From a virus (lineage: Duplodnaviria; Caudoviricetes), in IMG/VR virus record IMGVR_UViG_3300012943_000687, positions 1 through 37,375 of that record: DNA of 37,375 bases; one strand, given 5' to 3'. Made by a program: the position numbers and the translations under genes. The notes below the pieces were generated by a model. It was not told where the DNA came from, made no database searches, and saw only the letters and a program-made list of their open reading frames with translations. Of this stretch, positions 339 to 25,810 are shown piece by piece; within the stretch, counting starts at the first letter, position 1; every line of letters begins with the position of its first letter.

Positions 339-2009
339 CTAAAAATATTTAGCATTGAATTTATTTGCGTTGAATTTAATTGCTGAAATGAAATTACTTT
401 CAGTATTTTCCGGAATTGCAATAACGTTGATTGTTAAAATCTGCTCACTATAGTTTGCTTCATTCGTTGCCCTTACTGTCACAGAAAACGATTGACCAAT
501 AGTTGGTGGTGTAATCCAAGACAACGCTGCTGTAGATGTATTGATGTTGAATGCTGCAGCATCAGCTCCGGATTTTGAATAAACTGTTGTTCCTTCCGTT
601 GATGTCGCTGCAGAATTTAAAACTGCAGTAGTGCCTTCAAATCTCGTTAATGTTGCATCCGCAGGCATTACAGGCGGCTCAATCACATTTATTATATTCA
701 CAGTAATGTCCTGTGAATCGGTTCCAAATTCAGTTTCAACAGTTACTGTTATGTGCTTAACATTGCTTCCGGATTCGTAGTTAATCGGCGAAATTAAATC
801 TACAAGTGCGGTATCTTCATCAATCGAAAATAGTGCAGAATCAGGGCCGCCTAAAGTATAAAATTTTGTCCCGCCCCCTGATGAAGCTACAAAAGTTCCG
901 ACAGCAGTTGTATTTTCGTTTACGTTGACAACTGTATCGTCAGACATAACCGGTGGAGCAGTGCTTGCAACTCCAAAAATTACATAATAACTGCGCGCAA
1001 TTCCTGTTGATGACTGAAGATGCCAGCAAAGATACTCCCCTTCTTCACCGTCAATTCTGCCTTGTTCGTCATAAGTCATGCCGTCAGGAAAGGCTATCTG
1101 ATCGGTAACAACCGCAACTGGATCCATCTCAAAAAGTCCAGCCTCTTCTGAATAATCTAATGTTCCACTTAGCGTTACATAGTCATAACCGTCTGGAGGC
1201 AAGAAATTTGTGGTTGTTGTCGGTGCGCCTTCTGGCCCTGTAATAGTTACAGTTTTTGTCCCATATAATCCGTTAACAGTTTCGTCTACAAGCGGTGGAA
1301 TTGAATGTGTTCCGGTGCCATCAGTATCATCAATATCTATAGCAGCTAGACCACCAATGCTAACAGCAGTTACATCACTCAGGTCGGTTGCATAGCCTAT
1401 ACCGATTTCGCCGTTACGAACTGCACTGGGATAGGATTCAATAGTGCCTGCAATTTTTGTAAGTACTGCCCCATTCAAATACCCATAACTTGAGCCAGGT
1501 GCAGCCGTAAAAGAAAACGCGATAACACCACCGACGGGAGCAACAAGAAACTCCGCATAAGGAGCAACTGTGCCGGATGGCGGATTTGCCGCATCAACAT
1601 CTACTGACGCGCTACCGCTAACTGCCCCGGTAGTTACTACAAATCTAGTTACTCTTGAACCATCACCTCGCGCAACATCACGAGAAGCCGCTAAAATTAA
1701 CCGATAATTACCATCCGGGACGCTTGTAAAAGCGTAGGAACCAGTGTTACCGGAATCTAGATAAGTCGCGTCATAACAAATATTATTACTGACCCAAGGA
1801 GCAACACTCAAAGCATTGTTGCCATAGTGAGGGCCTGTTGTGCTGTCGGCTCCAGCGCTTGCATCGAAATCAATTACTGTAACTGTCGCGTCATCAATCG
1901 TTACTAGATTTGAAAAACTATCAGCAGCAGAACTTACGAGATATTCCCCGGAATTTACTGGTTTTGCAGCCTCGCCAAACGAAATTACTATTGGAAGTAT
2001 GTCGGTCAT
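339..2009 (-). CDS. cadherin-repeat / Ig-like putative virion adhesin or accessory protein
   Basis: Two C-terminal cadherin-like repeats (PPVM..VNVNENTTAV..YTLGGPDSALFSID..INYE..DITVNIINVIEPP; ..GADAAAFNINTSTAALSW..VTVRATN). Acidic and Thr/Ser-rich; no signal peptide. Confidence 0.65.
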   Translation of the reverse strand: MTDILPIVISFGEAAKPVNSGEYLVSSAADSFSNLVTIDDATVTVIDFDASAGADSTTGPHYGNNALSVAPWVSNNICYDATYLDSGNTGSYAFTSVPDGNYRLILAASRDVARGDGSRVTRFVVTTGAVSGSASVDVDAANPPSGTVAPYAEFLVAPVGGVIAFSFTAAPGSSYGYLNGAVLTKIAGTIESYPSAVRNGEIGIGYATDLSDVTAVSIGGLAAIDIDDTDGTGTHSIPPLVDETVNGLYGTKTVTITGPEGAPTTTTNFLPPDGYDYVTLSGTLDYSEEAGLFEMDPVAVVTDQIAFPDGMTYDEQGRIDGEEGEYLCWHLQSSTGIARSYYVIFGVASTAPPVMSDDTVVNVNENTTAVGTFVASSGGGTKFYTLGGPDSALFSIDEDTALVDLISPINYESGSNVKHITVTVETEFGTDSQDITVNIINVIEPPVMPADATLTRFEGTTAVLNSAATSTEGTTVYSKSGADAAAFNINTSTAALSWITPPTIGQSFSVTVRATNEANYSEQILTINVIAIPENTESNFISAIKFNANKFNAKYF

Positions 2010-2011
2010 CG

Positions 2012-3508
2012 CTAAACTCCCGCACTATAAGTTGGCAGCAGACCGAGCACTTCGGTGCTGAGTTGATACGCGCCTGCGTTTGTACCGTCAGGCATCAAAC
2101 CAATAGCGCCAGAACCTCCCGCATACGAATAATCATTCGCCGCGCGGTCAGTGAAAAGGGACGATGCCGACACAACAATAGAATGTGAATCCGGATTTGA
2201 TAAACCTAAATGCTGGGGAGTTCCTGCAGTTGCTGCCTGCCAGGTTGCTATATCGTTAAATGTCATTGAATTAGCGCCGTAGCGATTAGGAATGACCTGG
2301 AAGTTTGTATAAACGTTGTAATCCGATTCAGTAATTCGCGTGATTGCATTTTCATCATCATCGTATAGCGTTGTTAGTGCTAAAGAACCACCGCAAAGAA
2401 TATTCCCCCAACTTTCAATTTGCGCAAATGCTGATGCTGAAAAATGCGTAGTAGCACCAGTTGTTATGTCAATAATATTATGAGCAAGTCGCACTCTCGT
2501 AGACTGACCCTGTGCCCCACCCATCCGCGCCTGTACTGCTTCTTCCGTTGTTCCGTCAAAACCAAACATCACGTTATGATGAATATATTCAAAACCCGCT
2601 TCGCATGATCCGCTGCCGCGAATACCGATATTAATCGAGCTGCCCTTGCATTTTAGTTCACAATATCTAACTTCAACACCAGCGTACGGCGTTGTTGGCG
2701 AATCAGTTTCAACGAAGTGGTCTTTGAGAAAAATACCGAAGTCAACCGCATCAGTTTTAATGTGCTCGACAATCATATTTATGCAACCATAGGTTTGGAT
2801 TGCTGATGCAAGAGTAGATCCCTCTGCTGATATATTTTTGATAAATAAATTTCTAATTATCCAGTCTTTTGTCCCCCATGGGCCGATGCCCGAAATATTA
2901 TTACCTTCGGCTCCAGTCACACCATCAATCAAGCAGTTTTCTATACGCACACCAGTCGATAAATTTTCTAAATTAGGTATCCGATCCGGAACTTGCCCGT
3001 TGTTAATGATTCCAGCTTCACGACAATTTTCTATTCGTATGCCGTAAAAATTCCAATAGTCTTGGTCATTAATATGTAAACCTACTTGCGTTCCGCCGCC
3101 GTCTATAATGACTAAACCTTCATCGCCCGGAAACGCAATCATTGAGCATCGATTATCAATTTCACCACTTATTAACAATCCCAGAGCGCAAGGGTGACTA
3201 AACCAAGTCTGTGCGGAAACGAAAGCACTTAATGCAGTGCTTTCGTAATAAGTTCCTGCGCGAAGTATTATCGTGTCTCCCAACTCCATTACTGATAATG
3301 CTTTATTTATTTCCTTATATGGTGCGCCAAGTGATCCATCGCCGCTTTCATCGTCGCCATCTGTCGCCACATAAATTCCTACACCGTTTCCAAACTGTAT
3401 GTTGCCTACCGAGGGCGGACGATTGCCTAGCGCGTACAAAGTGGCAAACGTTGGCTGTGACGGATTCGCAATTAATACACCAGTTTTATCTTGATTAGTT
3501 TGCGTCAT
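2012..3508 (-). CDS. right-handed beta-helix (pectate-lyase-like) protein, putative tailspike/depolymerase
   Basis: IYVATDGDDESGDGSLGAPYKEINKAL..GDTIILRAGTY motif typical of parallel beta-helix proteins, plus repeated I-x-N-x-x-I rungs. Start reassigned to ATG 3508 (GAGG RBS). Confidence 0.75.
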   Translation of the reverse strand: MTQTNQDKTGVLIANPSQPTFATLYALGNRPPSVGNIQFGNGVGIYVATDGDDESGDGSLGAPYKEINKALSVMELGDTIILRAGTYYESTALSAFVSAQTWFSHPCALGLLISGEIDNRCSMIAFPGDEGLVIIDGGGTQVGLHINDQDYWNFYGIRIENCREAGIINNGQVPDRIPNLENLSTGVRIENCLIDGVTGAEGNNISGIGPWGTKDWIIRNLFIKNISAEGSTLASAIQTYGCINMIVEHIKTDAVDFGIFLKDHFVETDSPTTPYAGVEVRYCELKCKGSSINIGIRGSGSCEAGFEYIHHNVMFGFDGTTEEAVQARMGGAQGQSTRVRLAHNIIDITTGATTHFSASAFAQIESWGNILCGGSLALTTLYDDDENAITRITESDYNVYTNFQVIPNRYGANSMTFNDIATWQAATAGTPQHLGLSNPDSHSIVVSASSLFTDRAANDYSYAGGSGAIGLMPDGTNAGAYQLSTEVLGLLPTYSAGV

Positions 3509-3515
3509 TTTTTCC

Positions 3516-4595
3516 TCAACTTTCCGCGATCGGATCAAGGCGAGATTTAATAGCATCCGCGCTGCTTTTTTGTCCGGAAAAAGTCCCGGCTTGAATCGGT
3601 GGCTGTGTGGTTAACGGAACACCGTTATCGGTATATTGATGCGTATGAGTCGAAGCAGTGTTAGCAATATTTGACACCACTTGAATTAAATCACTGAGAA
3701 TGATTAAAACATTTTCACTCTCTGACCCAAGCCAAACTGTTCCGCCATCTTTGACTTTCAATAAATGTTTTATTTCTGCGATTGAAGAAATAATATTCCC
3801 AACAATTGTTGTTAAATCATTCTCAATATTTTGAGTTGAATCGTTGCCAATGTTTTGTAGGAAATCATTTGCAATATCTTGACTTGAATCATTGCCAATG
3901 CTTTGTTTTGCATTCCGCCCGATCTTATTATTTTGATCACTGGCAGTTGTAATATTTAAATTATCAACAGCGCCAATATTTAACGTTCCTGCACTCAATA
4001 ATTTTAATGCACCAAGCGCCTCAATTATTTTTACCCCGACAACTTGTTCTGTGCTGTTGTGTTTAACCAGGGAGTAGAAATCTTGGGCTGTAGTCGTTGA
4101 GCTGTAGCAGTGCAAAACATACTGCATACAGTCATCAAAAATATTTGCATCAGTTTCACGAATCCAGTTGCCGGCCGTGTCCGCGCGCTGGAAAACTCCG
4201 GGGGCGGCCTGAAGAACCATTTCGCCCACTTCAATTTTGGGCAAACTTAAACCTTCAGATAAAATAGTTCGCACAAAAGGTTTTGACGGCAAGCCCCAGG
4301 CAAACGCCAATTCAACCATTGTTCCAGGCTCGGGGAAGCCCATTGCGCCACGTTCCAGGCCAGCTGCAGCCAACGGCAAGGGAACGGACCTGAATACGGG
4401 TAAAAGTTCGTCAGGCTCGCCGGTTGTGCGCAATACTTGAAGATCCACAGCGTAACGAGGTCTAAATTTTTCGCTTAACGATTCAGTGTTTAATGGATCA
4501 CTGATGGCAACAACACGAGCAATAACTGGCAGATCCATTTTGCTGAATAATTGTTGATGATTCCGCTCGTTTATACGCTTGATCTGTTCGTCCAT
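3516..4595 (-). CDS. baseplate spike / puncturing protein (gpV/gp5-like)
   Basis: FRPRYAVDLQVL..G.FPEPGT.VELAF motif like the C-terminal half of the last HP1/K139 tail gene, gp5-like beta-repeats, and a C-terminal THTH metal-binding tip motif. Start reassigned to ATG 4595. Confidence 0.75.
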   Translation of the reverse strand: MDEQIKRINERNHQQLFSKMDLPVIARVVAISDPLNTESLSEKFRPRYAVDLQVLRTTGEPDELLPVFRSVPLPLAAAGLERGAMGFPEPGTMVELAFAWGLPSKPFVRTILSEGLSLPKIEVGEMVLQAAPGVFQRADTAGNWIRETDANIFDDCMQYVLHCYSSTTTAQDFYSLVKHNSTEQVVGVKIIEALGALKLLSAGTLNIGAVDNLNITTASDQNNKIGRNAKQSIGNDSSQDIANDFLQNIGNDSTQNIENDLTTIVGNIISSIAEIKHLLKVKDGGTVWLGSESENVLIILSDLIQVVSNIANTASTHTHQYTDNGVPLTTQPPIQAGTFSGQKSSADAIKSRLDPIAES

Positions 4596-24445: not shown

Positions 24446-24473
24446 TTGCGCTTGCGCTCAATGAGCGTACACT
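24446..24473 (+). promoter_or_regulatory. sigma70-like promoter with palindromic operator upstream of the Acr-like gene
   Basis: TTGCGC-N16-TACACT with CGCTCA-A-TGAGCG (24455-24467) in the spacer. Confidence 0.6.
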
Positions 24474-24541
24474 AACAACCATGCAAGCAAGATTGCTTAC
24501 ATCCGATCCGGCGGAACCGGAAATCGAAAAAGGTAAATATC

Positions 24542-24838
24542 ATGAAAAAAATCACTGCAATTCAATATTGGACATTCACCAATCAAGAAAACAATGAAAC
24601 AGAATATTGGGGCAATATTGCTATCGATGATAGCTTTATGTTGCAGTTTCACGGCAATAGCGAAGAATGCTCCTACTCAATTCCTCATTCTTCTGATGCA
24701 AGCTGGAACTCAGCAGAATCACAAGATGCCGCTTTTGAAAAATACAGCAAAAAAGAAGTAGTAGAATTTGTTGAAAGCCAAGGCTTCGAAAACAACTTGT
24801 TTTATGTGCAAGAAAATGGTGAATGCTACAACGCATAA
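24542..24838 (+). CDS. small acidic protein, candidate anti-CRISPR/anti-defence
   Basis: 98 aa with 17 D/E vs 5 K and no R. Own promoter, AAGGT RBS and terminator; adjacent to CRISPR-like repeats and an Aca-like HTH. Confidence 0.6.
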   Translation: MKKITAIQYWTFTNQENNETEYWGNIAIDDSFMLQFHGNSEECSYSIPHSSDASWNSAESQDAAFEKYSKKEVVEFVESQGFENNLFYVQENGECYNA

Positions 24839-24840
24839 AG

Positions 24841-24870
24841 AAAAGCCCCGGTTTTATCCGGGGCTTTTTT
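24841..24870. terminator. bidirectional intrinsic terminator
   Basis: AAAAGCCCCGG-TTTTAT-CCGGGGCTTTTTT, with T tracts on both strands. Confidence 0.9.
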
Positions 24871-24958
24871 TGCTGCCTGTGCGGCAGTGAACGGTTGCAT
24901 TAGCGGGTTATTTCTAACCTTTGCTTTTGCTTTCTAAGCTGCCTGCGCGGCAGTAGAA
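24865..24958 (-). CRISPR. type I-F CRISPR-like mini-array / crRNA-like RNA (two 28-nt repeats, one 38-nt spacer), no cas genes
   Basis: Plus strand TTTTTTTGCTGCCTGTGCGGCAGTGAAC (24865-24892) and TTTCTAAGCTGCCTGCGCGGCAGTAGAA (24931-24958), compared with the canonical I-F repeat TTTCTAAGCTGCCTGTGCGGCAGTGAAC. Both CTGCC-N5-GGCAG Cas6f hairpins are intact. Confidence 0.85.
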
Positions 24959-24963
24959 ATTTG

Positions 24964-24992
24964 ATTTAAGCAGAGTGATTACATCATGTCAA
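24964..24992 (-). promoter_or_regulatory. sigma70-like promoter for the crRNA-like RNA
   Basis: Minus strand TTGACA-N17-TTAAAT, preceded by TG (extended -10). Predicted start ~24957, at the first repeat. Confidence 0.55.
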
Positions 24993-25297
24993 CTGAAACG
25001 AGTGAACTACACATTACTGAGATCCCCCGCGAAGACAAATGCCGCTGGGCAGCCGCTGCATGTGCAAGCAATCAAAAACTGGCTGAGTGGGCAGTTAATG
25101 CACTCAACAATGCAGTGCCAGAAACCAATCCAGAATGGGCCTTTGGGCTTAGTGAGCGGGCGCGGCTGTGTTTGCTGTCAGCAGGTTTTGACAGTCGCGA
25201 AAGTGTTGCCAAGGCTGTTGCTGATGGCTTTGATATAGCCGCCATCAGCAACGCCGGAACAAAAATCAAAGATGAGGTGGAGTCATGGATAAAATAA
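24986..25297 (+). CDS. putative regulator: RHH-like N-terminus fused to an RNAP alpha-CTD-like (HhH) domain
   Basis: LHITEIPREDK.RW..AA....LAEW...ALN (RHH-like) plus LSERARLCL.SAG....V.......I.NAG.K...EV (alpha-CTD-like pattern). Confidence 0.5.
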   Translation: MSTETSELHITEIPREDKCRWAAAACASNQKLAEWAVNALNNAVPETNPEWAFGLSERARLCLLSAGFDSRESVAKAVADGFDIAAISNAGTKIKDEVESWIK

Positions 25298-25509
25298 CAC
25301 AACCCCCCCCTTGCCAAATCAAAGCCGCCAGGGAAGCGGCAGGCCTCACTCAAACTGCAGCGGCGGCATTAGTGCATGCAGGTTTAAAAACGTGGCAAAA
25401 CTGGGAGTCTGAAACCAGCGAAAATAGAAAAATTCCGCTGGCAGCATGGGAACTTTTTTTAATTAAAACTAAAAGTTTGGTCTCACGTAAAAAATTAAAG
25501 CCGCTCTAG
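25285..25509 (+). CDS. small XRE-type HTH protein, Aca-like
   Basis: IKAAREAAGLTQTAAAALVH..LKTWQNWE..RKIP.AAWELF; overlaps the upstream gene; GAGGTGGAG RBS. Confidence 0.75.
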   Translation: MDKITQPPPCQIKAAREAAGLTQTAAAALVHAGLKTWQNWESETSENRKIPLAAWELFLIKTKSLVSRKKLKPL

Positions 25510-25526: not shown

Positions 25527-25730
25527 TTAGTTTTTTTTATCAATAGAATTTTCTACTTCCATTATTTTTTCGTTTTGCCAGTCGATTATGTGGTAAATCC
25601 CCGCGCCTTCTTGCTCGCTTAATTCCGCAATATGCAAACGGCTGCACAATCCCTGGATCAAATTATTTACGGTGCGCACTTGATGCAAAACATCAATTGC
25701 GTTGAATGCTTCATTTCTTTGACTACCCAT
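25527..25730 (-). CDS. hypothetical protein (67 aa), moron-like
   Basis: ATG 25730 with AAGGT RBS; own upstream promoter. Confidence 0.6.
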   Translation of the reverse strand: MGSQRNEAFNAIDVLHQVRTVNNLIQGLCSRLHIAELSEQEGAGIYHIIDWQNEKIMEVENSIDKKN

Positions 25731-25810
25731 AAAAATACCTTTAGCCCGTGTGCTGTATTGCGCACCGCACAAATCAGATGATGATAGAATTATTTTTATT
25801 TAAATAAAAA

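Follow-up and report, generated by a model that had tools for sequence, protein, structure and literature searches.

The window, by which we mean the whole stretch of 37,375 nt that was analysed, is a temperate, HP1/P2-like phage that is classed as a 100% complete provirus. Scans of its open reading frames (ORFs) with PHROGs and Pfam gave a gene set of tail, head, terminase, portal, Ogr-like activator, primase, Cox, repressor and integrase. Prophages in four genomes, whose titles read Cellvibrio, Cellvibrionaceae or Gammaproteobacteria (L081-L084), have portal proteins with 73-75% identity to the one encoded here, and the host is therefore probably a member of the Cellvibrionaceae. An earlier note on this DNA had described the phage as lacking cas genes, and none was found here: six-frame searches, which covered Csy3 and Csy4, gave no match for either, and no cas family was matched among the 57 ORFs scanned with PHROGs or the 24 scanned with Pfam. 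At the end of the tail module, two minus-strand ORFs of 556 and 514 aa (window 339-3556) gave weak Pfam matches only (cadherin-like, DUF1565); it is possible that they encode receptor-binding or adhesion proteins.

Downstream of ogr the phage carries a cassette of about 1.1 kb that is missing from its six nearest phages. The distance from ogr to the next conserved gene, the homologue of ORF 25527-25772, is 45-65 nt in five of these six phages compared to 1,116 nt here; for the sixth (L083) the ogr match was not printed, and the conserved gene lies at the same distance from the portal. The cassette consists, in this order, of a promoter, P0002, a terminator, a reversed RNA gene, P0001 and P0003 (Table 1).

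Table 1. Features of the cassette and of the crRNA-like RNA unit, in window coordinates
Feature	Position	Strand	Description
Predicted acr-type promoter	24446..24473	+	TTGCGC, 16 nt, TACACT; aligns with the promoter of the sister operon L250
Aca10 operator-like inverted repeat	24452..24470		Between -35 and -10 of the acr-type promoter
P0002	24542..24838	+	98 aa, pI 4.2, orphan
Predicted two-way intrinsic terminator	24837..24871	both	Common to P0002 (+) and the crRNA-like RNA (-)
Repeat 2	24865..24892	-	Hairpin intact; A-run in place of the handle
Predicted mature RNA	24873..24938	-	66 nt (8 + 38 + 20) if Cas6f cuts each hairpin, from the known I-F cleavage site (PMC10651486)
Spacer	24893..24930	-	38 nt, between the two repeats
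Repeat 1	24931..24958	-	Hairpin intact (loop GCGCA), 8-nt handle intact, 5' bases diverged
Candidate promoter of the crRNA-like RNA	24964..24992	-	TTGACA 24992-24987, 17 nt, TTAAAT 24969-24964
P0001	24986..25297	+	103 aa, AcrIF25-like N-terminal domain (ribbon-helix-helix) and RNA polymerase alpha-CTD-like domain
P0003	25285..25509	+	74 aa, Aca10 homologue

The last protein of the cassette, P0003, matched PDB 7xi5 with an E value of 1.5e-15, and the code 7XI5 appears in the Aca10 structure paper (PMC9410881). The layout of the Aca10-bound promoter is given there as TTGCAA-N16-TATTCT. Of the 19 bases in the minimal Aca10 site of that paper, 16 are found in the operator-like repeat of our cassette, which is the best site in the window, where the operator core occurs at one place at up to two mismatches. 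The leader that follows (24474-24541) has an exact run of 13 bases in common with L250, around a small hairpin; RNA motifs in the leaders of aca10 operons are predicted in a 2026 preprint. The family profile of P0001 (A2, 37 representatives) matched the AcrIF25 N-terminal domain (residues 11-49 of PDB 8jdh, E 1e-5) and the alpha-CTD (E 4e-4), and P0001 precedes aca10 both here and in L250. Its likeness to AcrIF25 is confined to the N-terminal domain, a ribbon-helix-helix (RHH) that a 2026 preprint describes as dispensable for Acr activity. For P0002 no match was obtained in PHROGs, Pfam or NCBIfam and no meaningful one in PDB, and it is a candidate Acr protein by position only. A homologue of P0002 that is 93-98% identical (over 24542-24828) was found in other flanks in five RNA runs from several studies (X3, X14, X18, X22 and X24), thus P0002 also moves without the RNA unit.

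Promoter and leader are the same in the sister operon of viral locus L250, which further has a P0001 homologue (48% identical), an aca10 gene (79%) and, at the place of the RNA gene, an ORF of 102 aa. This ORF and a 144-aa ORF in L255 may be AcrIC6-like. Based on the cassette order, the Aca10 operator and the comparison with L250, we place the RNA gene in the acr slot of an aca10 operon. The published acrIC7-acrIC6-aca10 operon (PMC9410881, PMC7913775) resembles the cassette in its terminal Aca10 homologue, the operator between the -35 and -10 boxes, the 16-nt spacing and the small acidic first gene, whereas the cassette differs in its orphan and RHH/alpha-CTD-like cargo and in carrying, mid-operon, a terminator and an RNA gene in reverse orientation. 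As Aca10 is described together with I-C and I-E Acrs (PMC9410881), the cassette by itself does not point to type I-F.

The RNA gene itself does have type I-F features. Promoter boxes on the minus strand, two repeats, a spacer of 38 nt and a terminator each lie where the earlier note had put them. The promoter has a perfect -35 box and an extended TG, but its -10 box has four of six bases and lacks the key A, and it was not called by the promoter scan, so of the promoter claimed earlier the boxes are present and the -10 is weak. The bases of the -35 box also encode M-S-T, with which the divergent ORF 24986-25297 opens. The operator search found no Aca10 operator in this promoter, and the RNA may therefore continue to be made in the lysogen when the acr promoter is shut down. 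The terminator hairpin (24864-24845, stem 24845-24851/24858-24864) carries a T-run on each strand; it was missed by the terminator scan, and folding gives a stem of 11 bp. The A-run of repeat 2 thus has a second explanation, because it is also the plus-strand U-tract of the two-way terminator.

Repeat 2 matched Rfam CRISPR-DR4 (RF01317) with 40.2 bits (cut-off 35, E 5e-6), which was the sole Rfam match in the window. The hairpin motif occurs in two exact copies in the window; with one mismatch allowed there are five matches compared to 0.94 expected, a number reached by none of 100 shuffles. Both hairpins, the G and A of the loop, the linker and the handle of repeat 1 are intact, as had been read from the letters, and the diverged 5' bases of repeat 1 are able to pair with the handle in the predicted fold. 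It had also been claimed that degeneracy falls only in the parts that are discarded on processing. Against the family repeat (loop GCACA) this holds, as none of seven mismatches fall within the 28 bases that a Cas6f product would retain (P 0.005), but against a variant with a GCGAA loop, which was seen in sequencing run X1, two of nine do so, both in the loop (P 0.07). The unit as a whole fits the description of viral two-repeat mini-arrays, being intergenic, with a spacer-sized insert between repeat-like units and a degraded distal repeat.

At 38 nt the spacer surpasses every one of 449 sampled host spacers, of which none exceeds 36 nt and 414 are 32 nt long. It is predicted to fold into an irregular hairpin of 11 bp with a GAAA loop (MFE -10.9 kcal/mol, z -4.7), which none of 200 shuffles equalled; across repeat computations z ranged from -4.4 to -5.0. 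Among 442 host spacers, two matched this fold by z and 19 by energy, and 63 of 4,140 GC-matched 38-mers of the phage folded equally well. In the predicted pairing six of spacer bases 1-8 are paired, so that the seed is covered. The spacer had been proposed for comparison with cas promoters and phage databases, and no target for the normal seed emerged. The longest PAM-proximal run in the 266 kb of 18 family cas loci was 9 bases, a length equalled by 21 of 40 shuffled spacers; the cas locus of the actual host is outside this set, so a short promoter target may be missed. An 8-base PAM-flanked match that recurred in four cas loci was within the null range and was rejected. The 64 genus genomes contained two matches of the normal seed compared to six control matches, no protospacer was found in IMG/VR viral contigs, and the best E values were 2 against 50,697 phage records and 0.4 against 72,556 plasmid records.

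As to a host I-F locus with this repeat, which the earlier note had suggested looking for, bases 1-21 of repeat 2 are identical to those of a common I-F repeat of the Cellvibrionaceae, with mismatches at 22, 23 and 25. I-F arrays are uncommon among the relatives, which counts against the decoy reading given below: the repeat-handle pattern is present in 25 of 277 family genomes and in 2 of 64 genus genomes. The csy1 gene was present in 18 of the 26 repeat-bearing genomes tested. Sequencing run X1, which is possibly the source of the window, yielded a 56-nt contig (record 5) in which window 24968-24997 (+), with 0 differences, runs straight into an I-F repeat with the GCGAA loop, the variant of genome G074. 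The depth of this joint contig was 12.7 compared to 22-24 for the phage, and one side of the joint was seen. It appears from these reads that an I-F array in X1 took a spacer from this phage or a relative; the array may or may not be that of the lysogen. There is a CC PAM at neither end of 24968-24997, and the spacer may for this reason not threaten the phage. The 30-mer, which is absent from all 277 family genomes, lies over the RNA's candidate promoter and the beginning of P0001, and its CC-PAM position coincides with the last two bases of the -10 box.

Additionally, we searched for related units. A diverged copy of the RNA unit was not found in the viral and metagenome scans, and in viral contigs both the spacer-hairpin pattern and the seed pattern gave 0 matches. 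Distant blastn of 24500-25400 against phages returned terminators and chance pieces only, the homologue searches for P0001 and P0002 found no viral loci, and 160 portal-related loci contained neither a two-repeat unit nor a homologue of P0001-P0003; a GC-rich lookalike among them (L044) was rejected by eye. Eight of 24 sequencing runs were examined. In the independent run X2, a contig of depth 3 matched 24770-24920, which takes in repeat 2 and 28 bases of the spacer, without a difference in 151 bases, and a second contig matched 24969-25119, over P0001, with 6 differences in 151; the two pieces may come from different genomes. Run X10 gave chance pieces only, and the five RNA runs named above gave nothing besides the P0002 homologue.

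Scanning for long-spacer I-F units, twice in viral and once in metagenome sequences, gave 10, 9 and 5 loci. We dropped the phage's own contig (L330), arrays (L201, L202, L205-L207, L210, L331, L332, L340), L208 (33 nt), L335 (an inner third hairpin) and duplicates (L203, L209, L338). Six distinct two-repeat units were left besides this one, namely L339 (36 nt), L333 (37), L334 (39), L204 (39), L336 (41) and L337 (48), and their spacers are unlike the phage spacer and unlike each other. As the patterns demanded the repeat 1 handle and both hairpins, finding these again is circular, and so is the changed handle of repeat 2 in the metagenome scan, whose pattern additionally required it; in the unconstrained viral scan the repeat 2 handle was changed in three of four distinct units. 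L333 repeats the whole layout: its promoter is TTGACA-17-TAAATT, the repeat ends have diverged, there is a terminator, and the 37-nt spacer folds as a hairpin (z -2.2). It adjoins a RusA gene. Its unit (L333:1196-1704) converges on ORFs of 67 and 77 aa without Pfam match, with a common terminator, head-to-head as in the window. L336 has the same A-run and two-way terminator, and its spacer owes its fold (z -2.6) in part to a decayed inner repeat. The other z values were -1.6 (L339), -0.6 (L337), +0.1 (L204) and +0.9 (L334), and since only L333 and L336 fold clearly better than shuffles, folding is not general among the six. The long-spacer pattern was also found in two of 277 family genomes: three matches in G161 sit in an array, and the other genome is G074.

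Viral mimics of I-F repeats are a published class, comprising Racrs, Cracrs and mini-arrays, and the phage unit fits neither the Racr nor the Cracr definition. With RacrIF1-3 (Camara-Wilpert 2023, PMC10651486) it has in common a phage-borne mimic of the I-F repeat with an intact Cas6f hairpin, a candidate promoter of its own, no cas genes found and a position near acr-type genes, and the action proposed for Racrs is sequestration of Cas proteins, as we propose here. It is unlike them in having two repeats 66 nt apart, with a defined, self-folded 38-nt spacer in the middle, and its predicted product keeps the 5' handle, whereas the active RacrIF1 fragment described in that paper is without handle. 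The SRUFinder rule of the same paper asks for a single repeat with no full or partial repeat within 100 bp, and would discard the unit because it has two; its sequence does not occur in the nine supplementary files of that paper. Cracrs (Liu et al., 10.1101/2024.10.29.618823) are likewise repeat-spacer-repeat-terminator genes in phage anti-CRISPR loci; they are described as processed by host Cas6f and as also competing for Cas proteins. I-F Cracr spacers are, according to that preprint, mostly 17-21 nt and match cas or creT promoters, and many are linked to acrIF24, unlike the phage unit with its self-paired spacer of 38 nt, for which no normal-seed target was found, and its link to aca10. A Cracr should match a cas/creT promoter, or a CreR/CreA spacer of the host, at 9 or more PAM-proximal bases. 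Shmakov et al. (10.1101/2023.03.03.530964) list 835 two-repeat viral mini-arrays, which resemble the unit in having two repeat-like units and a degraded distal repeat; the cases described there differ, as their spacers are shortened and correspond to host mini-arrays or cas promoters. The unit is likely to escape the published searches, because SRUFinder drops two-repeat units and the Cracr search required a CreR/CreA match or acrIF24. A literature search that left subscription journals mostly aside, as well as the supplementary tables of both preprints, gave no description of a long or self-paired viral I-F spacer.

The earlier note had proposed a crRNA-like RNA that acts through the I-F proteins of the host, and had left its mechanism among three options, an RNA decoy, a guide that represses host cas promoters and a weapon against competing elements. 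The aca10 cassette lends this proposal independent support, as does the I-F repeat joined to phage DNA in X1. Among the mechanisms we lean, on balance, towards a non-targeting decoy that ties up host Csy/Cas proteins; of the Racr-like decoy suggested earlier the decoy is thus favoured, and the Racr part fails by definition, as the unit has two repeats and a product predicted to keep its handle. The unit would be transcribed from its own promoter, which is without Aca10 operator, and Cas6f would bind two hairpins per transcript and release the 66-nt RNA with its handle. This RNA might then enter an over-long Csy complex that has no target or, the spacer being paired, stall in a partial one. If repeat 1 were cut poorly, its 5' bases being paired with the handle, the product would have no free handle and would be RacrIF1-like. 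By every one of these routes Cas proteins would be drawn away from real crRNAs. A spacer of 38 nt instead of 32 amounts to one Cas7f step more, a step being six bases. Spacer length is reported to set the number of Csy3 subunits (Liu et al., 10.1101/2024.10.29.618823), and a non-targeting crRNA lowered I-F interference (PMC10651486).

Possible, though in our view rather unlikely, is that the unit is a Cracr-type guide, or derived from one, by which host Csy becomes a repressor of a cas or toxin promoter, either via the normal seed or via an inner register. The layout is like that of Cracr genes, and nucleotides 13-20 of the spacer form an inner handle-like sequence, GTTAGAAA, followed by 18 nt before repeat 2. 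Together with part of repeat 2 this gives 8 + 18 + 20 = 46 nt; the size reported for CracrIF1 is 46 nt (Liu et al., 10.1101/2024.10.29.618823). The inner register was picked ahead of the scan, in which it matched nine bases exactly, next to a CC PAM, at a site in G074 some 220 nt upstream of cas1; G074 belongs to the genus, and its repeat shares the GCGAA loop with the repeat in X1. The inner register was the best of 30 registers, with a chance per register of 0.019 over all intergenic sites and of 0.0008 for the G074 locus alone; a 9-base match has a chance of about 0.04 for the two planned registers, but over all 30 it is expected about four times in ten. The site in G074 lies within no called promoter, and neither G161, whose repeat is the same, nor G101 contains the 11-mer. 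TTAGAAA is found in none of 589 host spacers and handle duplications occur also in L204 and L340, which would suit such a derivation, but taken as a whole the spacer is not unusually similar to repeat 1 (27 of 589 host spacers, 313 of 5,000 shuffles). Inner handle and inner seed are both paired in the predicted fold, and Cas6f could not release the 46-nt form because no hairpin precedes the inner handle. The spacer length also argues against a guide, as I-F Cracr spacers are short and those of CreA/CreR are described as 23-27 nt, and no acrIF24 match was found. The inner register is a weak lead, perhaps to the ancestry of the RNA unit, and the promoter-guide option of the earlier note is weakened by the long self-paired spacer without a normal-seed target.

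We regard it as improbable that the unit is a non-functional remnant, i.e. a captured or decaying mini-array whose terminator was kept only for the plus-strand gene. Such a remnant would account for the weak -10 box, while the -35 box is explained by coding sequence and the A-run by the terminator; no diverged homologue was found, and the unit separates P0001-aca10 from the Aca10-controlled promoter. However, hairpins, loop G and A, linker and handle are all intact, the 11-bp spacer hairpin is not a product of random decay, and the layout recurs in unrelated elements. In X2, moreover, the depth-3 contig over repeat 2 and the spacer bases was free of differences, whereas the one over P0001 had six. 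Least of all do we expect the unit to be a mini-array by which the host I-F system is turned against a rival phage or plasmid. Inter-viral mini-arrays are cited in PMC10651486 and in the Shmakov preprint (10.1101/2023.03.03.530964), and the handle and repeats are intact, but the viral, phage and plasmid searches gave no protospacer, so that this option of the earlier note found no support; a self-paired 38-nt spacer is unlike an acquired one, and the predicted role of the cassette is to turn CRISPR off.

If the decoy works as proposed, spacer length and folding would decide between decoy and guide. A division of labour can be suggested in which a protein burst timed by Aca10 acts at infection and the RNA decoy acts steadily in the lysogen. 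We further raise, tentatively and as a rather doubtful extension of the decoy reading, that the unit may stand for a third kind of viral I-F RNA inhibitor, namely a decoy with full handle, long spacer and locked guide. Such a decoy, its seed folded away, would take up the Csy complex as a whole, with Cas5f and Cas8f, which RacrIF1 leaves free, could not target, and, being outside Aca control, would keep CRISPR down in the lysogen; L333, L336 and L337 might be further members. In the boldest form of this idea the hairpin would hide a 46-nt Cracr, and one RNA would switch between decoy and promoter-silencing guide. The L337 unit with the 48-nt spacer (found again in L338) lies ahead of a Cas7f/Csy3 homologue of full length (Pfam E 1e-51) and of aca2 (E 7e-13), and this phage locus, L337:1336-2931, also holds an ORF of 81 aa. 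Judged from this gene content, it is a candidate for an RNA decoy paired with a phage-encoded mimic of Cas7f.

Two of the family cas loci, L235 and L236, contain degenerate two-repeat units, one of them with a spacer of about 24 nt, which look like CreR/CreA elements of the host. Among 83 other aca10 loci an I-F-like repeat was found in only one, L315, which counts against the decoy reading. L315:1670-1790 (-), close to an aca10 homologue, holds I-F hairpins in three degenerate copies together with short spacers and a terminator; by its sequence this array seems Cracr-like, tied to aca10 instead of acrIF24.
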